Source of the DNA: an uncultured bacterium
GTDB taxonomy: Bacteria; Patescibacteriota; Minisyncoccia; Phycocordibacterales; PALSA-1337
Assembly: GCA_903842025.1 (NCBI GenBank)
Contig: CAIMKX010000048.1
Coordinates: forward strand, 1 to 56,202
Direction of reading: 5' to 3'
DNA length: 56,202 nt
Positions 38,239 through 50,691 of the stretch are shown piece after piece. The notes below the pieces were generated by a model, which saw nothing but the letters and a program-made list of their open reading frames with translations, had not been told where the DNA came from and searched no databases. The translations under genes and the position numbers were made by a program. The stretch's first letter is position 1. Each line of letters opens with the position of its first letter.

Positions 38239-38958
38239 CTAATACCTAGGGACGCCAACATCCTTTGTTTCCATAACAATATCGCCAAAATTTGATTCCT
38301 GAGAAACCTGAATAACGCCCAATTTGACCATTTCGAGCATGGCGAGGAAGCTAACGATCACATTTACTCGATTGCCGCGATGCTCACCAGAAAAATCCTT
38401 GAAACTCATGCGGAGGGTGCTAGTGATACGAGTTGTGAGAGTGCTCATCATGTCTTCAAGGCTGATGACTTTGCGGACTAAAGCTTTCGGCAACGATTCC
38501 TTCTTTGGCAACCGCCTAATTAAGTCGTTTATACATTCCAAAGCCTTAGAAAGATTAAACTCCGGATCTGGCGTGAAGATGATTGTCTGCGGTCTCGATT
38601 GAGAAGGTGGAAAAATTACCTGATCACCGAATAATTTAGCGACGTGAACAGCGGCATCCTTAATGCGCTTGTAGATCTTTAGGCGAGTTTCTAGGTCTTG
38701 AATGTTCTCTTGTTCTTCATCAGTCAAGGATAATTCGGGAAGAAGGGACTTGGACTTGATCAAAAGCAAAGTCGAAGCGATTAAAATGAAATGTGCCGAC
38801 TCCCCCATAGGCATATTCTGGAACTGCCGAATATGCTCAATGAAGTCATCCGTGACTTTGGCGAGCGAAATGTCGCTGATGAAAAGTTTACGCTTCTCAA
38901 TAAGATCCAAAAGCAGATCAAGAGGACCTTCGAATGATTGAGTTTTGACGGTGAACAT
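38239..38958 (-). CDS. scpA: Segregation and condensation protein A
   Basis: 239 aa. FEGPLDLLLDLIEKRKLFISDISLAKVTDDF. Confidence 0.85.
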   Translation of the reverse strand: MFTVKTQSFEGPLDLLLDLIEKRKLFISDISLAKVTDDFIEHIRQFQNMPMGESAHFILIASTLLLIKSKSLLPELSLTDEEQENIQDLETRLKIYKRIKDAAVHVAKLFGDQVIFPPSQSRPQTIIFTPDPEFNLSKALECINDLIRRLPKKESLPKALVRKVISLEDMMSTLTTRITSTLRMSFKDFSGEHRGNRVNVIVSFLAMLEMVKLGVIQVSQESNFGDIVMETKDVGVPRY

Positions 38959-38980
38959 TTTATTCGAAATTTATTGACCT

Positions 38981-39061
38981 GCGCCCTCTTGGCGGGACAA
39001 GTGTCGCTCCGATTCTCGCTTCGCTCGAATTACGCGACACTTTTCCCGCATGAGAGGGCGC
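38981..39061. repeat. 81-nt conserved three-tier hairpin element, copy 1
   Basis: gcgccctcttggcgggacaagtgtcgc...gcgacacttttcccgcatgagagggcgc. Near-identical to 50109-50191, with a compensatory base-pair change. Confidence 0.9.
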
Positions 39062-39083
39062 GAATATTGCCACGTGAATTCAA

Positions 39084-40031
39084 TTAAATAACACCAATTT
39101 TTTCTTTGACCTCCAGCAACTTCTTCGACGCGATCTCATTGGCCATAATACTCCCCTGTTTAAGAATCTCGGCAACAGTATTTTCATTCTTGGCCAATTC
39201 CGCGCGTCTTTCCATAAGCGGTTTTACATATGCGTCAATGTCGTCGATCAAGGCTTCTTTGAGTTTTTTGTATTTACCGGAATTTTCCTCGTAGAACTTT
39301 TTAAGGCTCGTCTCGGTCCGGAAGAGCTTATGAATGGCGTAGACGTTTTCTGGAATACCAGCGCTGGAATCGGTGACAATACTCATAACGGCCCTGGTGA
39401 TCTCCTCGCGAGTGGCGAAAAGAGGAATGGTGTTGCCATAACTCTTGGACATTTTGCGGCCATCGGTTCCGGGTACAGTGGCGACGTATTCAAGGATAAG
39501 GGCATCGGGTAGTTTGAATGTCTCGCCAAAGGTATTGTTAAATTTCTCGGCAATATTCCTGGCATATTCAACATGCTGTTTCTGATCCTGACCGACCGGA
39601 ACGACGTCGGTGCCGTAAAGCAGGATGTCGGCGGCCATAAGAACGGGATAATTGAAGGTGCCCACATTGATCTCTTTGTTCTTGGCCTCAGCATCCTTGT
39701 AGGCATGAGCGCGCATGAGATACGGCATTGTGACTATGGTGTCAAAGATCCAGCAAAGTTCGGTATGGGCAGAGACGTCAGACTGCTTGAAAAGCACGGA
39801 TTTGGCCGGATTTAGGCCAATGGCGAGGTAATCTAGAGCCAAGTCCAAAGTTAGTCGTTCTAGCTCATTTTTGTCCTGAATGAGATTCAGAGCATGGTAA
39901 TCGGCGATAAACAGATGGCAAGTGTAATCACCGCCATTTTGGAGGTCGACAAACTGCTTCATCGCGCCGAAATAATTGCCGATATGCGGCCGACCGGTCG
40001 GTTTGACGCCGGAGAGTAATGTCTTCTTCAT
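39084..40031 (-). CDS. trpS: Tryptophanyl-tRNA synthetase
   Basis: 315 aa. KPTGRPHIGNYFGA (HIGH-like) and KMSKS. Confidence 0.92.
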   Translation of the reverse strand: MKKTLLSGVKPTGRPHIGNYFGAMKQFVDLQNGGDYTCHLFIADYHALNLIQDKNELERLTLDLALDYLAIGLNPAKSVLFKQSDVSAHTELCWIFDTIVTMPYLMRAHAYKDAEAKNKEINVGTFNYPVLMAADILLYGTDVVPVGQDQKQHVEYARNIAEKFNNTFGETFKLPDALILEYVATVPGTDGRKMSKSYGNTIPLFATREEITRAVMSIVTDSSAGIPENVYAIHKLFRTETSLKKFYEENSGKYKKLKEALIDDIDAYVKPLMERRAELAKNENTVAEILKQGSIMANEIASKKLLEVKEKIGVI

Positions 40032-40060
40032 CAGCAGATTATATCAGATTGTCCTGTTTT

Positions 40061-40090
40061 TTGTCATTCCCGCGAAGGCGGGAATGACAA
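40061..40090. repeat. gtcattcccgcgaa-ggaatgac REP-like hairpin, copy 2
   Basis: ttgtcattcccgcgaaggcgggaatgacaa. Confidence 0.85.
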
Positions 40091-40111
40091 ACGATAAGTG
40101 TCCTTGAAATA

Positions 40112-41263
40112 CTAAATTCCCTCCCTCCTCAGCTCCTCAATCATCCTTTTCGCCTCTTTAGAAAGTTTCTTCGGCATGCTTATATGTATCTTAATAAGCA
40201 AATCGCCGCGATCACTGCGGGTACTAGGCACTCCTTTGCCTTTGATCCGAAGTACATCATTATTGTTTGTTCCTTCAGGGATTTTGACGATCAAATCACC
40301 ATCCAATGATCTTAATGTAATATCGCCGCCGGTAAGCGCTTGGGTAAGCTTGATCGTCAGCTCGGTGACGAGATTGGCGCCCTCCTTTCTGATAAATAGA
40401 TGTGGCTTGACGTGAACTTTGACATAGAGGTCGCCGCTCACACCAAAAGGCACCGCTTCCCCCATTCCACTAAGACGCATGGACTGACCATCTTCAATAC
40501 CTGACGGAACCTTGATGTTGATCTCCTGCGGCCGCTCCTGGACCCCTGTGCCGTGACAGGTTGAACATTTGGCAGAAGGCACTTCGCCGAGACCGTGGCA
40601 ATTATCACAAACCTTACTCGTGTTAATGACTCCGAGGAATGAACGACGAGATTCGCTAACACGTCCGTGACCGTTGCAGACTTTGCATTTTTCTTTCGTT
40701 GCGCCTCTCTCCGCGCCACTTCCTTCACAAGTCAGACACTTGGACGTTTTCGTGACAACGAAGTCCTTGCTTGCGCCAAATATTGATTCTTCAAATGAAA
40801 TCGTCAGATCAATGGAAATATCACTACCCCTTTCATCAACCGCACGTCTTGAGCTTGATCTCGATGAGCCAGTCGAACGGCCGGATCGTCCGCCGAAGAA
40901 GTCGCCAAATATATCTCCAAGATCAAATTCAAAGCCTTGGCCGTTGCCCTGAGTAAAACCTGAGAAATCGAAACCGCCGAAGTCCTGAGGATTGAATCCG
41001 CCAAAGCCGCTTGCTCCTCCGGATCCATTATTGAAACCTGCTCCTCCTGGTCCGCCGGAACCAAACATGTCATATTGCTTGCGCTTATTGTCGTCCGACA
41101 ACACCGAATATGCCTCGCTGGCATCCTTGAATTTCTGGGCCGAAGCGGGATCATTTTTGTTCTTGTCGGGATGATGCTGGTGAGCGACCTTATGAAAGGC
41201 CTTCTTGATCTCATCCCTTGAGGCGCCTTTCTCGACGCCGAGAGTTTTGTAGTAGTCTTTCAT
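40112..41263 (-). CDS. dnaJ: Molecular chaperone DnaJ
   Basis: 383 aa. J domain with HPDKN, G/F-rich region, four CxxCxGxG zinc motifs. Confidence 0.93.
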   Translation of the reverse strand: MKDYYKTLGVEKGASRDEIKKAFHKVAHQHHPDKNKNDPASAQKFKDASEAYSVLSDDNKRKQYDMFGSGGPGGAGFNNGSGGASGFGGFNPQDFGGFDFSGFTQGNGQGFEFDLGDIFGDFFGGRSGRSTGSSRSSSRRAVDERGSDISIDLTISFEESIFGASKDFVVTKTSKCLTCEGSGAERGATKEKCKVCNGHGRVSESRRSFLGVINTSKVCDNCHGLGEVPSAKCSTCHGTGVQERPQEINIKVPSGIEDGQSMRLSGMGEAVPFGVSGDLYVKVHVKPHLFIRKEGANLVTELTIKLTQALTGGDITLRSLDGDLIVKIPEGTNNNDVLRIKGKGVPSTRSDRGDLLIKIHISMPKKLSKEAKRMIEELRREGI

Positions 41264-41271
41264 GATTGTAA

Positions 41272-41667
41272 TTATAATCTATAAAACTTTTTATAGTGGG
41301 CCTTTAATTCCGTTAACTTCGAATCCGATACATTCTGAATGCGTGCAAAAATCCGTTTTGGCGATATGGTTCGAGCCTGATGAATACATACGGAAACATT
41401 TCTTCCATCTGCAAGACAAAACGGAATATACCCGGGTGCCTTTTTGACGCTGGTTGTCATTGGAAATACTAAAGCGAGTTTGTCAGAAAACATATCTGCA
41501 ATCAGACATGGCCGATTGAATGATTCACCCTTGCCATCCATTTCAGATCCGATATTGACGCCAATCGATACCCAGCGTATTTCACCTGCGCGACAAAAGA
41601 TACCCGAATCATCATTATTTAGGTGCTTTTTCACACTGTTCCATTTGTCGAAACATTTAATATACAT
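41272..41667 (-). CDS. PemK/MazF-like toxin-fold protein, with no adjacent antitoxin ORF seen
   Basis: 131 aa. GEIRWVSIGVNIGSEMDG...RPCLI...VFPMTTS...HQARTISPKR resembles the MazF/PemK pattern. Ends 8 nt before the dnaJ start. Confidence 0.55.
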   Translation of the reverse strand: MYIKCFDKWNSVKKHLNNDDSGIFCRAGEIRWVSIGVNIGSEMDGKGESFNRPCLIADMFSDKLALVFPMTTSVKKAPGYIPFCLADGRNVSVCIHQARTISPKRIFARIQNVSDSKLTELKAHYKKFYRL

Positions 41668-41976
41668 ATTTGCCGTTTACGCACCGTTTAAACCCTTTTT
41701 ATTTGCGGTCTGCCGAAGCAAACCGCTGACGCCCGAAGGCGAACTGTGCCTTTAGACTATCAAATTTTATCAATTTGTCAATGCAACTAACTTTACAAGA
41801 CAAGCCATCAAAGATTATCTCTGATTGTTGCTACAATTTTACACTTGGTAAAACGAGAGTAAACTTGACAGTGGTGCTCTAGTCATGTTAGCCTCACATT
41901 GAATTACTGAATTTCAGTTAGCGAGGTATTGGAATATCTCGTCAGCAGAAAATTGAAAAAAAATCAGGAGTTTTCT

Positions 41977-42240
41977 ATGCTTACAGCCGAAGATCTGAAA
42001 AGAAACTTTAAGGCCGTACCTCACCCATCACCGGTGCCTGAAGAAGGTATGTTTTGGTTGAATCCCGATGTTGAACTTGTATCAGTAGTCGATTCGGTAG
42101 GTCATGGACCAAAGAAAGGTAAACATGTCCACGCTTGGATATTTTACGACAGCACTGGTAAATATCCGAATATGGTTCAACTTCGTGAACATACGTTTTG
42201 GTGGGAACTTGGATGGTTTGAACTAGCAACGAAATCGTGA
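41977..42240 (+). CDS. Hypothetical protein (87 aa)
   Basis: The ATG at 41977 is preceded by aggag. The ORF-track start at 41929 lacks an RBS. Confidence 0.45.
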   Translation: MLTAEDLKRNFKAVPHPSPVPEEGMFWLNPDVELVSVVDSVGHGPKKGKHVHAWIFYDSTGKYPNMVQLREHTFWWELGWFELATKS

Positions 42241-42334
42241 ATCGTGAATCACAAAGATCCTTCGCTTGCTCTCCCGAGCTTTGCTTAAACGCAAGTCTCC
42301 GAAGAGCTGCGAGGGTCCTTTTTTATCCAAACCA

Positions 42335-42548
42335 AAAGTGACGAAATTTTTCGTCACTTTTGAGAACTCAGAAAATCCCCCGGCCTACCGGCCACCCCCT
42401 TTTTCAAAGGGGGATTTTCCATCGAACACTTCTCTTTACATAACACCCAGAGACTTGAAAAACTTCAAGCGATATCTATTCAATAACATCCCGTTGGAGG
42501 ATCCCCCCTTTGAAAAAGGGGGTGCCCCGAAGGGGCGGGGGATTTTTA
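42335..42548. repeat. Multi-hairpin repeat block, copy A (downstream of dnaK)
   Basis: aaagtgacgaaatttttcgtcacttt terminator palindrome, then aaaatccccc...gggggatttt hairpins. Shares a 35-nt and a 26-nt exact block with 44958-45220. Confidence 0.85.
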
Positions 42549-42564
42549 ATCTGGTCTGCGCATC

Positions 42565-44499
42565 CTATTTCTTTTCTTTGAATTCAGCGTCTTTGACCTC
42601 TCCTTCACCACTATCTTTCTTTGATTCCCCGCCAGTCTGACTACCACCAGCATTCTTCATCATATCTTCCATAGGATTCTTACCAGCACCTGGCTGTTGA
42701 TTCATATACTGTCCTATCTTCTGAATCTCCCCCGACAACGCCTCCGTTGCGCTTTTTATTCTTGCCAAATCTGGCGACGCGTTATCCTTAGCAGTCTTCA
42801 GATCTGCCACCTTATCTTCAATAGTCTTTCTTAATTCAGCCGGCACTTTATCTCCAGCGTCTTTAAGTGCTTTCTCAGAAGTGTAGATCAGTTGCTCGGC
42901 AATATTCTTGGCCTCGATCGCTTCATGCTTGGCTTTGTCTTCCGCTTCGTGAGCAGTCGCTTCCTGTTTCATTTTCTCGACTTCTTCCTTGGAAAGACCG
43001 GAGCTAGCGGTAATCTTGATCGAATTCGCTTTGCCGGTGGCTTTGTCCTTGGCGGTCACATTGAGGATGCCGTTGGCATCGACATCGAAAGTTACTTCGA
43101 CTTGAGGCATACCGCGCGGTGAAGGTGGGATTCCGTCAAGAATGAACCTCCCTAGCGACTTATTATCGGCTGAAAGAGCCCTTTCACCCTGGGTGATGTG
43201 GATTTCCACCGAGGTTTGGTTATCCGCAGCTGTAGAGAACGTTTGAGACCTCTGGGTGGGTATAGTGGTGTTCTTGTCGATCAGCTTTGTCGCTACACCG
43301 CCCAAAGTTTCGATACCGAGAGAGAGCGGAATGACATCGAGAAGCAAAACATCCCGAACTTCACCGCCCAAAATTCCGCCTTGAATAGCGGCGCCCACCG
43401 CAACCACCTCGTCGGGATTCACACCCATGTGAGGATCTTTTCCGAAGAATTTCTTGACAGCATCTTGGAGAGCCGGCATGCGCGTCTGGCCGCCGACTAG
43501 AACGACTTCATTGATCTCGCCAACCTTGAAGGGCGAGGCCTTCATAGCTCGCTCGGTAATCGCCATCGCTCGACCAATGAATTCCGCGCACATGTTCTCA
43601 AGCTGAGCCCGTGTCATAACGACGAGCAAATGCTTCGGACCATCAGCGCCGGAAGTAATGAATGGAATATTGATCTCGGTCTGCATGGCCGTCGAAAGCT
43701 CAATCTTAGCTTTCTCAGCCGCTTCATCCAGCCTCTGCAGTGCCAAAGGATCGGCTTTGAGATCGATACCATTTTCTTTCTTGAAAGTATCTGCCAGCCA
43801 ATTCACAATCTTGGCATCAATATCGCGACCTCCTAGGTGTGAGTCTCCGTCGGTGGATTTCACTTCGATAACATCATCTCCCACTTCAAGGACGGAAATA
43901 TCGAACGTTCCGCCACCGAAGTCGAAGACGGCGATCTTCTCATCTTTCTTTTTGTTGAAGCCATAAGCCAAAGCCGCGGCCGTCGGTTCATTTATAATTC
44001 TTTTAACATCCAGCCCGGCAATCTTGCCAGCATCTCGTGTAGCCGCTCTCTGGGAATCGTTGAAGTATGCCGGCACGGTAATGACCGCTTCGGTGATCGT
44101 TTCTCCGAGTCGTGCTTCCGCGTCATTCTTCAATTTTTGCAGAATCATAGCCGAGACCTCTTCTGGTCGTAGCCACTTTCCTGACATGTTGACTTCAATG
44201 CCGCCTGTCGAAGATTTGCGAACTTCGAAGGAGACATTTTTAATATCGCTCTGAACTCCCGGATCGTCAAAATTGTGACCCATAAAGCGCTTGATCTGGA
44301 AGATCGTGTTCTTGGGATTAGTTACGGCCTGCCTCTTGGCAAGCAAACCAACCAAGCGTTCGCCCGTCTTGGACTGCGCCACTATCGAAGGTGTCGTCCT
44401 GGCACCCTCGGCATTCTCAAGGACCTTCGGCGTTCCTGCCTCCATAACCGCAACGGCGGAGAAGGTTGTACCGAGGTCTATTCCGATGATTTTACTCAT
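42565..44499 (-). CDS. dnaK: Molecular chaperone DnaK (Hsp70)
   Basis: 644 aa. [24 protein letters not shown] and [10 protein letters not shown] signatures. Confidence 0.95.
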
Positions 44500-44539
44500 A
44501 GATTTTGGGGTAATTTATTTTCTATACACTAATAATTTA

Positions 44540-44935
44540 TTACTGACACGAGTCTCTCATATCCATCACACGTGGTCGATCATCGTCAAGTTCTGGTTTT
44601 GCTTTTACAGATCCGCTTTTACAATTTGGGCAGGAATAAAACGATGGATTTCCATTTGGATGCATGTGAATTGGTTTTGATTCAGAATCCCAACATCTTG
44701 TGCAAAATGGACCTTCACCAGTCTCCTTGTACCAATAGGCATGATTTTTTATGACTAAAACATTTTTAATTCTTAATTTTTCTTTTAGATCAGTAACTTC
44801 TTTTTCAAGCTCGGTGTTTTTCTTCTGTAAGTCCAACATTTTTTCCAGTGCTTCGAGGATTTGTCTATATTCTGGAATCTTACCAGCTTCTTTTAATACA
44901 CCAGCCGCATCTTTTAATCCGTCATATATACTCAT
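44540..44935 (-). CDS. Coiled-coil plus zinc-ribbon small protein (131 aa), immediately upstream of dnaK
   Basis: N-terminal heptad-rich helix (LEKMLDLQKKNTELEKEVTDLKEKL), then CTRC...CPNC. Confidence 0.5.
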   Translation of the reverse strand: MSIYDGLKDAAGVLKEAGKIPEYRQILEALEKMLDLQKKNTELEKEVTDLKEKLRIKNVLVIKNHAYWYKETGEGPFCTRCWDSESKPIHMHPNGNPSFYSCPNCKSGSVKAKPELDDDRPRVMDMRDSCQ

Positions 44936-44957
44936 GGTTGTTATGGTTTAGCATGAT

Positions 44958-45220
44958 AAAGTGGCGACAACTTTCGTCACTTTCAAAATCCCCCACCCTG
45001 TCGGGCACCCCCTTTTTTCCATTCTAAAAATCCCCCACTCCTCGGCTAACGCCTCGGAGCACCCCCTTTTTCAAAGGGGGATTTTCCATCGAACTCGCCA
45101 CTTCTGAGAATGCCTAATAGTTCTAAGAACCCTTAGGGTAATATTTCAATAACATCCCGTTGGAGGATCCTCCTTTGGAAAAGGGGGTGCCCCGACCAAC
45201 GGGATGGGTGGGGGATTTTC
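44958..45220. repeat. Multi-hairpin repeat block, copy B (upstream of the 131-aa ORF and dnaK)
   Basis: Same order of modules as copy A. caccccctttttcaaagggggattttccatcgaac (45060-45094) and ttcaataacatcccgttggaggatcc (45145-45170) are identical to 42393-42427 and 42479-42504. Confidence 0.85.
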
Positions 45221-45287
45221 TGAATCCTTAAGCGAAGCGACTGAATGGCAAGGGGTTTTCTGTTTTTTAATGTACTTTTCTTTTAAC

Positions 45288-45320
45288 ACACTGGATTCCC
45301 CCCTTCGCAAGAATGACACA
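45288..45320. repeat. REP-like hairpin variant, copy 3
   Basis: cactggattccccccttcgcaagaatgacaca. Confidence 0.7.
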
Positions 45321-45512
45321 TTAGAGAGACGGCTTTGCCTCGCCGTAGCTCGCCTTAGCGAGCGAAGGAGGGAGCCCTTGTAGGTTGACTATTTATGAGA
45401 AATTCTAGAGAAAAATATGGAGAAACGAGAGGGGCAAAAGCGGGAGTGTATAAAGTATCGGGGGTTTTTGCGGTGCAGGAAATTGGTAAACAATATAGGC
45501 TATTGCATTCAA

Positions 45513-45544
45513 CACTGGATTCCCGCCTTCGTGGGAATGACACA
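45513..45544. repeat. REP-like hairpin variant, copy 4
   Basis: cactggattcccgccttcgtgggaatgacaca. Confidence 0.75.
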
Positions 45545-45732
45545 AGCGAAAGTGGTTGAGCCGAAATAAGTCTCCCACGTAGTTCTCCATTAACTACTGC
45601 CACCAAGAAAGTCAGACGAAATTGGCGACCGGAAGCATCGGTGAAGATGCGGGAAAGAAATTGGGTTTTCGGGGCTATTTGAATCATATAAGCAGTACGA
45701 TCAATTATAGCAAAAAGTTCAAATTTGATACA

Positions 45733-45979
45733 TTGACAGTAATATTAACAACGTGGTATATTGAAAAAGCTTACAAGCTTCTGTCCACTATCCGTCCTAC
45801 AACAAAAACGGATAGACGACAGAAATATCACGTTAGCTATATATGGGTCGCCGTTACAAGGGATCGAAAGTTTCAAATGACTGGAAGATCAAACTGAAAC
45901 TCAATATTGCGGACGTAGACGTCATCAATACCCGCCAATTCTTCCTGCGCCGAATTCAACACTTTCGGCGCTTTCTTTT
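45733..45979 (+). ncRNA. Candidate ~210-nt transcript (sRNA or tiny-ORF mRNA) with its own promoter and terminator
   Basis: TTGACA (45733-45738), 18-nt spacer, TGG-TATATT extended -10 (45754-45762). Internal hairpin ctatccgt...acggatag. Terminator gcgccgaa-ttcaacac-tttcggcgc plus tttctttt (45947-45979). Confidence 0.4.
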
Positions 45980-45987
45980 GTTCAATT

Positions 45988-46581
45988 TTACTTCTTCTTG
46001 AACTCCCCAACCTTGACCTTCGGCGGCCGCATGGCTTTACCATTCAAATTATATCCTTTCTGCAAGACCGTCAGTATCTTATGATTATCAGCCTCCGATT
46101 CCACAGGCACATATTCAGCCGCCTCGTCTCTATTATGATCAAATATCTGGCCGATAGGATTAACCTCGTCGAGTCCGGCATCACTCAACGCTTTCTTTAA
46201 TTGAGAATAAATATACTCAACCCCAACCCTCCAATTCTTATCGACATTCTCCCAGACTTCCTTGTTACCCATCGCCATGTCGAAGCTTTCTAGAACTGGA
46301 ATAAGGCTATCAATCAAACCTTCATTGGAGAATTTTACGAAGTTCTTGCGCTCCTCCTCTTCCCTTTTGCGGGCGTTAATGGAATCAGCCTTGGCTCTCT
46401 GCCAGCCTGTCAGATATTCCATCTTTTCTGCCTCGCACTTCTTGAGCTTCTCGCGAAGCTTCTTTACGGCTTCAAGGGCATTTTCTTCGGCAACAACAGA
46501 GTCATCGAGGTCGTTGTCTTCGATAATCTTCTCAATAGTTGGCTCTGGCACTATTTCATTATCTTCTGATTCATTCTTCAT
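45988..46581 (-). CDS. grpE: Nucleotide exchange factor GrpE
   Basis: 197 aa. Acidic N-terminus, coiled coil, and a C-terminal GrpE-like beta domain (...VLQKGYNLNGKAMRPPKVKV). Confidence 0.88.
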   Translation of the reverse strand: MKNESEDNEIVPEPTIEKIIEDNDLDDSVVAEENALEAVKKLREKLKKCEAEKMEYLTGWQRAKADSINARKREEEERKNFVKFSNEGLIDSLIPVLESFDMAMGNKEVWENVDKNWRVGVEYIYSQLKKALSDAGLDEVNPIGQIFDHNRDEAAEYVPVESEADNHKILTVLQKGYNLNGKAMRPPKVKVGEFKKK

Positions 46582-46618
46582 TTATTCAAGAATAGCGGAA
46601 AATTGCCCTTAAGGCAAC

Positions 46619-46645
46619 AAAAAAGTCCGCCACCATCGACGGACT
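46619..46645 (-). terminator. Rho-independent terminator after 46667-47134
   Basis: On the minus strand, agtccg-tcgatggtgg-cggact is followed by tttttt. Confidence 0.6.
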
Positions 46646-46666
46646 GATACCTTTCTGCCTAGACTT

Positions 46667-47134
46667 CTAGGTCAATAATTCCCGAAAACGGCATATCCTC
46701 TTGCTTAACTCATTATATCTCTGAGATGATTTGCTGACTGCTTCGCGAACCATCTTTTCATCCTGATAAATATCGGACGATTTCTGATCGTTAGCCATCC
46801 TCATGAGCTCTGTGAGATTGGCACGACGAACTTCAAAGAACTCATTCAAGTTCTTGATGTACAGTTCCATCGACATGAGAGCTATGGAGCCCATGTCGTA
46901 CTCACTTTCATAGCCCAAGGCTAAGATATTGATCTTGTATCTATGAAGTTCATCGCAGACCGTCTTATAAATCAGGTCGGCGTTTTCGCAACCACCGGGT
47001 TGTGTGAAATGCAGTACAGAACATTGTAGTTCACAAATCGTTCGATTGACCCTATCGAACCCGCGATAGTGAAATATCAAGAGCGTTGTGGCTATGATAA
47101 CGATAAAGAGAAGAACAAAGGTTACTTGTTCCAT
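46667..47134 (-). CDS. Hypothetical N-terminally anchored protein (155 aa)
   Basis: TM segment VTFVLLFIVIIATTLLIF. No motif recognised. Confidence 0.5.
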   Translation of the reverse strand: MEQVTFVLLFIVIIATTLLIFHYRGFDRVNRTICELQCSVLHFTQPGGCENADLIYKTVCDELHRYKINILALGYESEYDMGSIALMSMELYIKNLNEFFEVRRANLTELMRMANDQKSSDIYQDEKMVREAVSKSSQRYNELSKRICRFRELLT

Positions 47135-47176
47135 ATTACCTCCATTGTGTTGTTGATCTGCAATGATTGTACAACT

Positions 47177-47204
47177 AAAAAAGAAGTATCGCTACTTCTT
47201 TTTT
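47177..47204. terminator. Bidirectional rho-independent terminator after rpsI
   Basis: aaaaaagaagta-tcgc-tacttctttttt. Confidence 0.8.
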
Positions 47205-47227
47205 GAATACGATTCTGCAATTCAGGA

Positions 47228-47638
47228 CTAGCGTTTGCTCCACTGTGGAGACTTGCGGGCTTTCTTGAAACCGAACTTGCGGCGTTCTTTGGCGCGGGGA
47301 TCTCGCTTCAAATAACCGAGCTTCTTCAAAGCGCCGCGAGTCGTGATGTCATAAACCATGAGTGCGCGGGCGATGCCGTGGCGAAGAGCTTCGGACTGAG
47401 CGTTAATGCCGCCACCAACAATCTTGGCCGTTACGTGGAATTTGTCGGCGGTCTTGGCTCCGGCAAAAGCTTCTCCGGCAGTAGCCTGCATCTCTTTGGT
47501 TGGAAAATAGGCCTCCAAAGTCTTGCCATTGATCTCAAATCCGGTCTTGGCTCCGGCAAAAAGGCGGACGCGAGCAATGGCCGTTTTTCTACGTCCTACT
47601 GCTTCAAAGTATTTCTTTATGGTTGGTGTTGGTGTCAT
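47228..47638 (-). CDS. rpsI: 30S ribosomal protein S9
   Basis: 136 aa. GGGINAQSEALRHGIARAL and the C-terminal ...KKARKSPQWSKR. Confidence 0.92.
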   Translation of the reverse strand: MTPTPTIKKYFEAVGRRKTAIARVRLFAGAKTGFEINGKTLEAYFPTKEMQATAGEAFAGAKTADKFHVTAKIVGGGINAQSEALRHGIARALMVYDITTRGALKKLGYLKRDPRAKERRKFGFKKARKSPQWSKR

Positions 47639-47643
47639 GGTTT

Positions 47644-47709
47644 GGAATTTTGAATTTAGAATTTGGAATTTAGAATCTAAATTCTATATTCCAAATTCTA
47701 AATTCTAAC
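47644..47709. repeat. Low-complexity palindromic hairpin (ggaatttaga family), copy 2
   Basis: ggaattttgaatttagaatttggaatttagaa | tctaaattctatattccaaattctaaattctaac, lying between rplM and rpsI. Confidence 0.85.
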
Positions 47710-47710
47710 T

Positions 47711-48055
47711 TCATTCTTTAATAATCAAATTCTTCATCCTCAGATCCCGCAGTTTATTGTCGGGAAGCATGCGGTAAACAGCGCGACGCATAACCTCGGT
47801 GATGCCGCGGCGGTTGATGAGATCGCCCAGACTTTCGGAATTGAGGCCGCCACGATGGCCGGTGTAGGTGACGTAAACGTCTTTCAGCTTCTTGTTGGCG
47901 GTGATATCCGTCCTTGAAGCATTCAAAATCTCCACTTGGCCTTCAGCCACGACATTCTTGGCGAAACTCGTGGAATTCTTGCCCATAAGCTGGGCGGCGG
48001 CCTGGCTGGCCACCCTTCCCAATTTCTTATCTTTTGCGTCAATTGAATATTTCAT
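47711..48055 (-). CDS. rplM: 50S ribosomal protein L13
   Basis: MKYSIDAKDKKLGRVASQAA... and YTGHRGGL motifs. The start is placed at the ATG at 48055 to avoid overlap with rplQ. Confidence 0.88.
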   Translation of the reverse strand: MKYSIDAKDKKLGRVASQAAAQLMGKNSTSFAKNVVAEGQVEILNASRTDITANKKLKDVYVTYTGHRGGLNSESLGDLINRRGITEVMRRAVYRMLPDNKLRDLRMKNLIIKE

Positions 48056-48065
48056 GTTTTTCTGT

Positions 48066-48413
48066 TTACACAAACTCTATCATGGACATCGGACTTCCAT
48101 CCAGATCGCGATCAGCCAAACGAACTATTCTGGTGTATCCACCAGCGCGACTCTTGTATTTCGCGGCCGTCTCGATGAGCTTGTTTGTTTCATTGACGCT
48201 TTGAAGTCGAGAAACAATAAGCCTTTTCGAAGCCATGGTACCAACTTTGGCCCTGGTGACAAGCTTCTCAACGAAAGGACGAAGCTCCTTGGCCTTGGCC
48301 GTCGTGGTGCGAATGCGCGAATCGCGGATCAAGTTCCTGGCCAAAGAACGCAAAAGAGCGTGCCTCTGGGTCTTTTCGCGTCCAAATTTTCGGTTGTTTG
48401 AGTGATGTCTCAT
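48066..48413 (-). CDS. rplQ: 50S ribosomal protein L17
   Basis: 115 aa. MRHHSNNRKFGREKTQRHALLRSLARNLI. Confidence 0.92.
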   Translation of the reverse strand: MRHHSNNRKFGREKTQRHALLRSLARNLIRDSRIRTTTAKAKELRPFVEKLVTRAKVGTMASKRLIVSRLQSVNETNKLIETAAKYKSRAGGYTRIVRLADRDLDGSPMSMIEFV

Positions 48414-48431
48414 GATAATTTACATTTTGCA

Positions 48432-49424
48432 TTATTGCTTCAGGGTAATATTGTACTGGGCCAAGAGCTTTTTAATTTCTTGCATACCTTTAGCTCCTAA
48501 ACCGTCGACATCCATGATGTCCGACTCCTTCTTCCTGGCCAAACCACCCAAAGTCCTCACGTTGGCGTTGGAAAGAGCCTTGACCGTTCTTGAGGAAAGG
48601 CCCAAAACGTCGATGCGAGTCTTGGAAAGCTCGGTATCCAGCTCCAACTTGGATTCTCCCTTGGACTTGGTTCCGGAAGCTTCGCCAGAATCAGCGGCAG
48701 CCTTACCATCTGAAATAGAATCCGCAGACTCTTCCTCCTTGAATCCGACAATGGCTTTGAGTTGTTTGATCATTAGGGAAATCGACTTCTCTAGGGCTTC
48801 GCGTGGTGAAATGGTGCCGTCGGTCTCGATCGTCAAGCGAACGCGGTTGAAATCGGTCCTGTCGCCGACGCGCATATTCTCAACCTCGTAATTGGCCTTA
48901 CGGATCGGGGTAAAAGCGGCATCAAGGGTGATGGCGCCGATATCGACGCGCTCTTTCTGAATGACTTCCTTGGAGACATATCCGAGGCCTTTCTCGACGG
49001 TGATCTCTATATCGATATCAGCGCCCTTCTCGGTAAGAGAGGCGATGTGCAAATCAGGATTTAAAATTTCGGCCTGACCGGGAGCTTCGATGTCTTTTGC
49101 AGTTAATTCTTTGACTCCTTTGGCTTTGAGCGACATGACTTGAGGCTCATCGGTATCGAGGCGGATCCTGACTTTCTTGAGATTTAGGAGAATGGTCACA
49201 ACGTCTTCCTTGACGCCGTCAAGAGTCGAAAATTCATGCTCGACACCGGCTATCTTGACTTTGGTGATGGCCGCGCCCGGCAAGGAGGAGAGGATGATGC
49301 GGCGGAGAGAGTTGCCAAGAGTATGTCCGTAGCCCGGATAAAGGCCGTCGATCTCATAAACTCCACTGACCTTGTCCTCGCGGATAATCTTTGGCTGTGA
49401 TGGTAGTACTACTTCGTATGTCAT
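48432..49424 (-). CDS. rpoA: DNA-directed RNA polymerase subunit alpha
   Basis: 330 aa. GYGHTLGNSLRRILLSS-like N-terminal domain and a C-terminal domain with LGLSSRTVKALSNANVRTLGGL. Confidence 0.93.
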   Translation of the reverse strand: MTYEVVLPSQPKIIREDKVSGVYEIDGLYPGYGHTLGNSLRRIILSSLPGAAITKVKIAGVEHEFSTLDGVKEDVVTILLNLKKVRIRLDTDEPQVMSLKAKGVKELTAKDIEAPGQAEILNPDLHIASLTEKGADIDIEITVEKGLGYVSKEVIQKERVDIGAITLDAAFTPIRKANYEVENMRVGDRTDFNRVRLTIETDGTISPREALEKSISLMIKQLKAIVGFKEEESADSISDGKAAADSGEASGTKSKGESKLELDTELSKTRIDVLGLSSRTVKALSNANVRTLGGLARKKESDIMDVDGLGAKGMQEIKKLLAQYNITLKQ

Positions 49425-49477
49425 ATATTTATTATTATAAAATTAGAACACAATTATACATTAAAATAAGATAATGT

Positions 49478-50083
49478 CTAGCGTGTGTAAAACTCCAAGA
49501 CCTGCTTGACGTCGAAAAGGAGCTCCGTCATATCCGTGACGGGCGTGGCAATGATGCTGACCTTTTTGGTGGCTGGGTCAACCGACATCCAGGACGGCCA
49601 TTTGAAAGTCTTGAGCTCCTCGTCCAATCTGGCGAAAATCACCTTGTTCTTACTGCCTTCCCTGATCGTCAGGACATCGCCGACTCTGACCTCATATGAA
49701 GGTACGGTGATATTCTTGCCATTCACGACTATATGACCGTGAGAAACCATTTGTCTGGCGGCCGAGCGGGTCGGAGCGTAGCCGGCCCGGACCATGGTGT
49801 TGTCCAAACGACTTTCGAGAATTGAAAGAAGGTTTTTGGCATTATCGCCGGTAGTTTTCAAGGCTTTCTTGACATATTTGGTGAATTGTTTGCCGGAGAC
49901 GCCGTAGCTGAAGCGGGCCTTCTGTTTCTCCATCATCTGCTTGCCGTATTCGCTTTTGGTGCCGCGGCGACCGGTGGTCTTGGCCTTACGCTGGGCGCGC
50001 ATGGCAAATTTCTGAGTCTGAGTCTTCCTGAAGACTGGGGCTCCCAAGTATCTGGCTTTTTTGTATCGTGGTCCGATCTTCAT
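49478..50083 (-). CDS. rpsD: 30S ribosomal protein S4
   Basis: MKIGPRYKKARYLG... The start is placed at the ATG at 50083, because the ORF-track extension runs into the 83-nt repeat element. Confidence 0.9.
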   Translation of the reverse strand: MKIGPRYKKARYLGAPVFRKTQTQKFAMRAQRKAKTTGRRGTKSEYGKQMMEKQKARFSYGVSGKQFTKYVKKALKTTGDNAKNLLSILESRLDNTMVRAGYAPTRSAARQMVSHGHIVVNGKNITVPSYEVRVGDVLTIREGSKNKVIFARLDEELKTFKWPSWMSVDPATKKVSIIATPVTDMTELLFDVKQVLEFYTR

Positions 50084-50108
50084 AAATTTAAAAATTAAAA
50101 ACAACTCC

Positions 50109-50191
50109 GCACCCTCTCGGCGGGACAAGTGTCGCTCCGATTCTTCGCTTCGCTCGAATTACGCGACACTTCTCCCGCCTGAAGAGGGTGC
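50109..50191. repeat. 83-nt conserved three-tier hairpin element, copy 2 (between rpsK and rpsD)
   Basis: gcaccctctcggcgggacaagtgtcgc...gcgacacttctcccgcctgaagagggtgc. Confidence 0.9.
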
Positions 50192-50259
50192 GGCTGGCGC
50201 AATTCATTATTAAGTTTTACATTGTTATTTTTCATTTTGATATTTACATTTTACATTAA

Positions 50260-50691
50260 CTATACGCGTCTCGGTTTCTTGGGTTTCGGCCCGTTGAACG
50301 GCACCGGCGTCGCATCCTTAATGGACGAAATAGTGATGCCTTTGCTTATAAAACCCCTGATCGCAGACTCGCGGCCGGAACCGACGCCCTTGACGACCAC
50401 ATCCACTTCCCGAATGCCGAGGTTTTGAGCCTTGAGTGCCAAGGTTTCGCCGACTTTGGCGGCGGCAAACGGCGTACCCTTCTTGGCACCACGAAAACCG
50501 GCTCCACCACTTGATCCCCACATGAGAGCGTTGCCGGACTTATCGGAAAGCATGACCTTTGTATTGTTATAAGTAGACTGGACGTGCAGAATACCGCTGT
50601 CATAGCGCTTTTTTGAAGACACGAGATTGGCTGAAGACTTCTTGTCCCCCGTCTCTGCTTCACCAGTTGTTACAATTCTTTTTTTACCCAT
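50260..50691 (-). CDS. rpsK: 30S ribosomal protein S11
   Basis: 143 aa. GILHVQSTYNNTKVMLSD... and GFRGAKKGTPFAA. Confidence 0.92.
   Translation of the reverse strand: MGKKRIVTTGEAETGDKKSSANLVSSKKRYDSGILHVQSTYNNTKVMLSDKSGNALMWGSSGGAGFRGAKKGTPFAAAKVGETLALKAQNLGIREVDVVVKGVGSGRESAIRGFISKGITISSIKDATPVPFNGPKPKKPRRV

Follow-up and report, generated by a model that had tools for sequence, protein, structure and literature searches.

Is a conserved hairpin that stands just before the gene for ribosomal protein S4 a control RNA of that gene, or is it a piece of mobile DNA that came to rest there? The question is raised by contig C48 of genome G000, a 950-kb, 45% G+C, 99%-complete assembly from the Paceibacteria, members of the Candidate Phyla Radiation (CPR); the contig was analyzed over 56,202 nt, and this whole stretch is referred to as the window. 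A palindromic element occurs in the window twice, as copy A between the stop codon of trpS and the start codon of scpA and as copy B between the stop codon of rpsK and the start codon of rpsD (Table 1), the last of which was placed via a profile match and relatives. We consider it probable, at roughly 80%, that the element is a non-coding, mobile palindromic "selfish" DNA repeat, of the kind represented by Rickettsia palindromic elements (RPEs), long repetitive extragenic palindromes (REPs), or MITEs (miniature transposable elements with inverted repeats), and not an S4 control RNA. The family, which belongs to Paceibacteria, is previously undescribed, no description of it having been found in the searchable literature. 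Copy B came to lie in front of rpsD by chance, through insertion.

Copies of the element and the pairing of its hairpin

The two window copies share 92% BLAST identity across the element and have unrelated flanks, and a 25-nt core of the element occurs exactly twice in the window, against 0 occurrences expected from 100 shuffles. A preliminary description of the sequence had located both copies correctly, had called them nearly identical, and had drawn three stacked helices, all of which are present in both copies; a fourth, apical helix (GATTC/GAATT) was missing from it. Copy A folds with a free energy of -53.3 kcal/mol (z = -8.8) and copy B with one of -56.0 kcal/mol (z = -10.4), 0 of 200 shuffles being equally stable, and the opposite strand folds equally well or better (-51.9 and -62.0 kcal/mol). 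Each copy is situated between a co-directional pair of minus-strand genes, and Pfam profiles agree with the naming of the four gene products as S11, S4, TrpS, and ScpA.

Searches with BLAST, nhmmer, and covariance model R1 revealed 11 young copies in G000, which are distributed over 8 contigs and both strands, have unrelated flanks, are all intergenic, and fold alike (-44 to -58 kcal/mol). These copies form two subfamilies and have in common a one-sided 3' tail, GGCTGGCGCGATTCGTTTT, that is unexplained by the palindrome. A second covariance model, R2, which was built from copies of other species alone, recovered all 11 of them with scores of 69 to 98 bits, as well as two diverged copies that lie in frame inside open spans of 576 and 404 codons. 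The initial count of two, which is right for the window, thus understates a genome-wide total of 13. The exact core also gave seven matches among metagenome contigs, all of which are 99.99 to 100% identical to G000, and two metagenome contigs of the same population end within the element, as is usual where a repeat breaks an assembly. Outside G000, the exact core was found in none of the species-representative genomes and in none of the viral contigs.

BLAST found no copies in 40 relatives, and the diverged copies of related species surfaced only through the covariance models. In total, 28 of 150 sampled genomes of the family were positive with R2, including 24 of the 79 belonging to the same genus and 4 of the 45 belonging to a second genus, and the richest relatives carry 25, 23, 21, and 15 copies. 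Within any one genome the copies are nearly the same, whereas those of separate genomes differ, a pattern that indicates lineage-specific bursts. The element is a near-perfect palindrome of ~95 bp with four stacked helices, and the copies of relatives have the same length and architecture as those of G000, with helices that are spelled quite differently. Unpaired motifs that are common across species comprise the internal loop CTCTCGGCG/CGCCTGCGG and an apical GCTTCGC, and relatives' copies also have in common an unpaired 5' motif, ACCCCGC. The one-sided 3' tail reads GGCTGACG in most species, with GGCTAACG as an alternative, and GGCTGGCG in most G000 copies. As near-identical copies at unrelated sites reveal, the element has multiplied within genomes.

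The pairing of the hairpin is maintained by compensatory change. In the alignment of the 11 copies of G000, 97.3% of the pair cells are standard and 7 of the 35 pairs are changed on both sides, values as high as which were obtained in 0 of 500 shuffles, and slid controls contain only 0 to 1 pairs changed on both sides. The exchange of G:C for A:T in the outer helix, which had first drawn attention to compensation, is real, with A-U present in six of the young copies, G-C in five, and an unpaired state in none. Alignment A7, a model-based alignment of 31 copies from ~15 other species, shows pairing in 90.5% of its cells (71.5% when shuffled and 39 to 49% when slid), both-side changes in 32 of 35 pairs (18 when shuffled and 8 to 12 when slid), and a covariation score of 0.392 versus 0.128, and none of 500 shuffles reached these values. 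A separate script applied to 40 copies gave the same pairing picture. The helices are therefore not disrupted in the further copies, and the earlier proposal of a multi-tier hairpin kept by compensatory change is supported across species far more strongly than two copies could show. Wobble pairs were also tried as an indicator of the acting strand and were rejected, as they are not usefully asymmetric: the "+" form is favored by a G·T pair of the apical helix that never varies, and cross-species A·C cells (~21), which are no rarer than G·T cells (~10), slightly favor the other strand.

Insertion between and inside genes

The spacer between rpsK and rpsD is 176 nt long in G000, compared with 4 to 63 nt (median, ~22 nt) in 74 of 76 relatives; the two outliers, of 96 and 202 nt, are unrelated to the element. 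None of the 76 relatives has the element at this junction, nhmmer found no copy in 80 rpoA loci, and four same-genus junctions that were read directly have spacers of 10 to 35 nt and no hairpin. Likewise, the spacer between trpS and scpA measures 125 nt in G000 and 6, 38, and 46 nt in three relatives. The short, element-free spacers of the relatives indicate that the copies at both junctions are insertions.

In relatives, the element is also found inside genes. At least 100 stop-free codons are present on both sides of 20 of the 44 relatives' copies, which are located in open spans of 380 to 800 codons, with 10 copies in each orientation relative to the host gene, and a gene of one relative carries two copies. 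All 12 host proteins that were tested have a strong ortholog in G000 (52 to 76% identity). Eleven hosts were aligned to their orthologs, and in ~8 of them a clean gap of ~30 residues coincides with the element, whereas G000 has an insertion of its own or a variable segment at the remaining three sites. The hosts include a primase-like protein (in two species), a ligase-like protein, a beta-lactamase-fold protein, an ABC ATPase, PyrD, and others. At the site in the primase-like protein (loci L174 and L171), different variants of the element occupy one position in two species. In-frame copies in genes, in both orientations, are incompatible with a dedicated regulatory RNA. The behavior is that of a plain DNA-level repeat with random orientation, which the preliminary description had set against its own proposal, because the element is found at dispersed loci and in frame in genes of relatives, with both orientations equally represented.

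Companion hairpins and competing explanations

G000 contains a second hairpin, 27 nt long (GTCATTCCCGCGAA(G/A)GCGGGAATCCAG), with 90 occurrences at no more than 4 mismatches, including 35 inverted pairs of 84 to 382 bp and 20 unpaired occurrences. This hairpin matches the published NTS consensus of Neisseria and holds the dRS3 core ATTCCC-N8-GGGAAT (PMC11893778), and three solo hairpins of this type are located in the window (Table 1). One inverted NTS pair (C20:10054-10435; 382 bp; locus L124, ~1423-1804) encloses a gene for a 92-residue SsnA-like GIY-YIG protein (Pfam GIY-YIG, 66.5 bits), the nearest solved relative of which is a UPF0213 protein; the unit has the NTS-ssnA-NTS arrangement described by Chenal et al. 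in 2025 (PMC11893778). Close SsnA homologs, with 60 to 78% identity, were found in 6 of 150 related genomes, one of which has three copies and another two. The other NTS pairs enclose short spacers, AT-rich palindromes, or, in two cases, the element (C9:23753-23963 and C45:20274-20519). The flanks of the element pair with each other only in these two NTS-bracketed copies (duplex z of about -12), the other 9 of the 11 being unbracketed, and the idea that every insertion of the element hits the tip of a bigger palindrome was rejected, since flanks pair in only 2 of 11 copies.

NTS-type repeats were also encountered inside genes. At two of the aligned host sites, such a repeat occupies the same spot as the element and is translated as ...LDSRFRGND... 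or ...SFPRKRES.... A G000 gene (C1:348-1796) contains, in frame, an 85-bp NTS-bounded unit (pair C1:1005-1089) that is translated as ...SFPRKRES...LDSRLRGND..., and relative L167 has the long hairpin element studied here at the matching spot. The 202-nt rpsK-rpsD spacer belongs to relative L068 ("Ca. Parcubacteria bacterium MFD03044.bin.2.101") and contains an AT-rich palindrome, in the center of which lies a pair of NTS-like hairpins; its AT-rich arm resembles the AT-rich stretch joined to copy B in the window. AT-rich palindromes, one arm of which that stretch resembles, fill NTS-bounded units of 179 to 195 bp elsewhere in G000, the likeness being judged by eye. The rpsK-rpsD junction would represent either a hot spot or an insertion of old date that L068 and G000 have in common. 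A further hairpin, of 33 nt (GTCATTCGACTCTGAGAGTCTCAGACTCGATGA), sits exactly in the apical loop of other hairpins, namely, one copy of the element and two NTS hairpins (Table 1), and this placement suggests a small element that targets hairpin tips. In addition, G000 has a second small GIY-YIG gene (C6:27086-27307) of a different subtype (motif ...HYTKIRRPV...) with no repeat flanks, and weaker SsnA-like matches of this subtype are present in relatives, e.g., G014 and G133.

Table 1. Positions of the element, neighboring genes, and other repeats in the window (contig C48) and, where a contig is named, elsewhere in G000
Feature	Position	Strand	Details
Palindromic element, copy A	38975-39069 (model extent)	+	Hairpin 38980-39062; tail diverged; R1 96.6 bits, R2 71.5 bits
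Palindromic element, copy B	50103-50199 (model extent)	+	Hairpin 50107-50193, followed by tail CTGGCGC; R1 114.4 bits, R2 91.2 bits
Diverged copy of the element	C6:24713-24810		Found by R2
Diverged copy of the element	C27:4204-4301		Found by R2
scpA (segregation and condensation protein A)	38239-38958	-	Pfam SMC_ScpA, E = 4e-20; start codon at 38958
trpS (tryptophanyl-tRNA synthetase)	39084-40031	-	Pfam tRNA-synt_1b, E = 2.5e-58; stop codon at 39084
rpsD (ribosomal protein S4)	49478-50083	-	Pfam Ribosomal_S4 and S4 domains; start codon (50083) at a distance of 19 nt from copy B, past its 5' end
rpsK (ribosomal protein S11)	50260-50691	-	Pfam Ribosomal_S11, E = 4e-32; stop codon at 50260
AT-rich stretch joined to copy B	50200-50257	.	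Resembles one arm of AT-rich palindromes; judged by eye, unscored
Solo NTS/dRS3-type hairpin	40063-40089	+	ATTCCC-N8-GGGAAT core
Solo NTS/dRS3-type hairpin	45291-45317	-	ATTCCC-N8-GGGAAT core
Solo NTS/dRS3-type hairpin	45515-45541	-	ATTCCC-N8-GGGAAT core
33-nt hairpin site	C45:20382-20406		In G000
33-nt hairpin site	C38:19997-20021		In G000
33-nt hairpin site	C42:52377-52401		In G000

The SsnA-like gene raises the alternative that the element is an atypically long Ssn-related motif (SRM), in which a CGTCAG-tagged hairpin would be bound as single-stranded DNA (ssDNA) by a small GIY-YIG nuclease of the SsnA family; the nuclease would either disperse the motif or exploit it for the control of ssDNA that is incoming or being replicated. 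We regard this explanation, in either form, as unlikely. The NTS-bracketed SsnA-like gene and the ~90 hairpins with the published NTS consensus (PMC11893778) are consistent with it, as is the location of two element copies between inverted NTS hairpins and of a third beside one, so that 3 of 11 copies lie within 60 nt of an NTS hairpin, compared with an expected 5.6% (P = 0.02). In 10 of 40 relatives' copies, the tail is CGTCAGCC when read as its reverse complement and is followed by the palindrome, which echoes the order "CGTCA + hairpin" of NTS, and RPE-4, RPE-6, and dRS3 have been placed in one CGTC-tagged superfamily (PMC3733652). However, the published SRM pattern, HGTCWY...RNCYNB, matches 0 of 13 copies of G000 and 0 of 40 copies of relatives on either strand, with the NTS repeat passing as a positive control. 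In 4 of the 5 rich genomes searched, small GIY-YIG genes occur without the element in their flanks, the richest genomes have no close SsnA homolog, and there is no co-occurrence, since 6 of the 28 genomes that have an SsnA-like match (21%) carry the element, as do 22 of the 122 genomes that have none (18%). Most G000 tails also read CGCCAG, not CGTCAG (reverse complement CGCCAGCC in most G000 copies). Among the 40 relatives' copies, CGTTAGCC and CGATAGCC were found in 7 and 5, respectively, beside the 10 with CGTCAGCC. The likeness between the CGTCAGCC tail and the CGTC tag of dRS3, RPE-4, and RPE-6 reported by Di Nocera et al. is a resemblance and not a demonstrated link.

Other candidate mobilizers fared no better. 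No Y1_Tnp was found in G000, and RAYT was rejected as the mobilizer because, in 4 of the 5 rich genomes, the Y1 genes are flanked by 18- to 20-nt palindromes of their own and R2 scores at most 16 bits there, even with filters off. TnpB is absent, and IS110 is absent from the five richest genomes. The Y1 (IS200/RAYT-like) transposase genes of relatives, of ~190 to 200 residues, were observed at loci L211 to L216 (genomes G133, G126, G157, and G014), and each is flanked by genome-specific 18- to 20-nt perfect palindromes, e.g., CAGGATGTGACACATCCTG; they constitute REP-RAYT-type units in Paceibacteria.

A functional RNA that has been copied around the genome, as an mRNA stabilizer, an RNase III site, an attenuator, or an S4-responsive leader at rpsD, is quite improbable. 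Such an RNA would be in line with the high stability of the hairpin on both strands, with the covariation that keeps it paired, with the conservation of its unpaired motifs across species, and with the like orientation of both window copies and six others relative to the flanking genes; in addition, transcripts in which Correia, ERIC, or REP elements are embedded are known to be affected by them (PMC10969869, PMC3733652). However, an S4 leader or a conserved operon structure is rejected on the spacer census of 76 relatives together with the trpS-scpA junctions. The preliminary suggestion of a structured or regulatory RNA tied to rpsD and S4 did not survive, as the element is missing from all 76 rpsK-rpsD junctions of relatives, lies at unrelated loci in G000, and occurs in coding sequence in both directions (10 to 10). 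In Escherichia coli, the S4 operator is a pseudoknot at the start of rpsM and not a hairpin before rpsD. The likeness of copy B to the S4 operator of the alpha operon is one of position only, both being structured regions near rpsD in a ribosomal protein operon, and the two differ in that the element is repeated at unrelated loci.

Signals expected of a transcriptional function were likewise not found. No terminator, taken as a GC-rich stem with a T-run within 0 to 2 nt, was detected on either strand around either window copy, T-runs in their vicinity being at least 6 nt from the stem, and neither copy has a canonical promoter site. Promoter-like TTGA...TAAAAT strings upstream of some copies were rejected, since they belong to the interior of NTS units or to AT-rich flanks and are outside the element. 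Rfam 15 gave no match to the element at the gathering score or E-value threshold, with two tRNAs being the only matches in the window, and a relaxed scan of copy B returned one chance match, to a plant miRNA precursor, with 22 bits compared with a gathering score of 160. G·U is not in excess over A·C. The 11 young intergenic copies are antisense to the flanking genes in eight cases and sense in three, a lean that is not significant (binomial p of ~0.23) and that coincides with local GC skew, so that transcription bias is inseparable from replication-strand bias.

Very improbable is a repeat driven by recombination without transposition, in which gene conversion or template switching would spread copies and hairpin-templated repair, not selection, would restore the pairing. 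Copies within a genome are far more alike than same-site copies in different species (the primase-like site of L174 and L171), a pattern that concerted evolution would produce, different palindromes are present at the same sites in different lineages, and the searches revealed neither an enzyme nor a target-site duplication nor a parent element. Against this, new copies that arise at many unrelated sites, between unrelated flanks, must have a route into non-homologous DNA, bursts of at least 20 near-identical copies are typical of active mobilization, and the conservation of the unpaired motifs suggests that a protein recognizes them.

Several points weigh against the conclusion that the element is mobile DNA. 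None of the mobilizing enzymes tested (Ssn, RAYT, IS110, and TnpB) was found to serve it, which leaves room for copies to have spread through recombination or gene conversion. Neither a transposition event nor a presence/absence polymorphism nor an autonomous parent element was observed, G000 has no gene with half-elements on its two sides, and no target-site duplication was recognized at the boundaries of young copies, which were read by eye. All 11 young G000 copies are intergenic, and their weak 8:3 antisense lean could point to selection acting on RNA or on the replication strand. A functional RNA, too, would be expected to conserve unpaired motifs from species to species. Furthermore, all alignments used for the pair counts were fitted to the model structure, which favors pairing, although the slid and shuffled controls speak against an alignment artifact.

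If the element is mobile DNA, its hairpin is most probably kept because a propagation machinery recognizes the ssDNA or cruciform hairpin together with the conserved unpaired motifs, in parallel with the recognition of REPs by RAYT and of NTS hairpins by Ssn. The surviving copies would be only those located between genes or without effect on the openness of a reading frame. The window copies would be transcribed within operon mRNAs and may incidentally be an RNase III substrate, a pause site, or a stabilizer, any such effect on the operon mRNA presumably being a side effect and not the reason for the element's presence. We put forward only tentatively that the family might be moved by a new hairpin-recognizing mechanism, distinct from Ssn, RAYT, IS110, and TnpB, for which the internal loop, the GCTTCGC motif, and the GGCTGACG tail could form the recognition code.

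Likeness to known palindromic repeats and implications

The closest parallel in behavior is provided by the RPEs, palindromic repeats that are found in frame in many Rickettsia genes (PMC10969869). Like the element, RPE-1 to RPE-10 are palindromic repeats, of ~100 to 150 bp, that form several subfamilies in a reduced genome, are located between genes as well as translated in frame in unrelated housekeeping genes, and have no known dedicated transposase (PMC10969869). RPE sequences end in CGTC at one end (PMC3733652), to which the CGTCAGCC on the reverse strand of 10 of 40 relatives' copies may be compared. The likeness concerns behavior and architecture only. The element differs from RPEs in its host phylum, Patescibacteria, in its shorter length of ~95 nt, in consisting almost wholly of one four-tier covarying hairpin, and in the exclusively intergenic location of its young G000 copies.

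CGTC-tagged REPs and dRS3/NTS repeats (PMC3733652, PMC11893778) resemble the element in being hairpins with a one-sided unpaired tag that gives them an orientation, in often forming inverted pairs, and in occurring between and inside genes, REPs having been found within genes as well (PMC3733652). The stems of CGTC-tagged REPs are 8 to 9 bp long in units of 20 to 50 nt, whereas the element has a stem of ~35 bp in four tiers over ~95 nt. From Ssn motifs the element is set apart by its failure to fit the SRM pattern and by neither flanking nor co-occurring with ssn genes. The two NTS-bracketed copies are comparable to the inner "RS"-like unit of NIMEs (dRS3-RS-dRS3), which were reported to be Neisseria specific in 2007 (PMC1797815), and G000 has 35 bracketed units with varied interiors; in contrast to NIMEs, 9 of the 11 element copies are unbracketed and no long arrays were seen.

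REP/REPIN-RAYT systems are likewise palindromes that persist in a lineage, are amplified within genomes, and have a hairpin kept by compensatory change. However, the element has no GTAG tag, G000 has no Y1 transposase, and the Y1 genes of relatives are flanked by other palindromes. MITEs such as Correia/CREE, ERIC, and RUP are similar in being small, non-coding inverted-repeat units in intergenic regions that are co-transcribed with their neighbors, and, as a side effect, they are known to give rise to promoters, terminators, or sites for RNase III or RNase E (PMC10969869). Unlike MITEs, which have terminal repeats around a core, the element is one whole hairpin, and neither a target-site duplication nor a parent insertion sequence was recognized for it.

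The strong covariation beside rpsD does not mean a riboregulator here, and a tempting false lead is thereby removed; a structured RNA and a mobile DNA palindrome are not distinguishable from covariation alone. The family is now documented by two covariance models, a conserved architecture, its distribution, and its in-frame insertion into essential CPR genes. The NTS/dRS3 and SsnA system of G000 extends a recently described Neisseria-type system to Patescibacteria. CPR genomes are minimal, and such "junk" is unexpected in them. The family thus offers a test case for the movement of palindromes without a recognizable transposase and for the tolerance of proteins to inserts of 30 residues, and, if a new mechanism does move it, it would represent a novel class of very small mobile DNA that remodels essential proteins in ultra-small bacteria.

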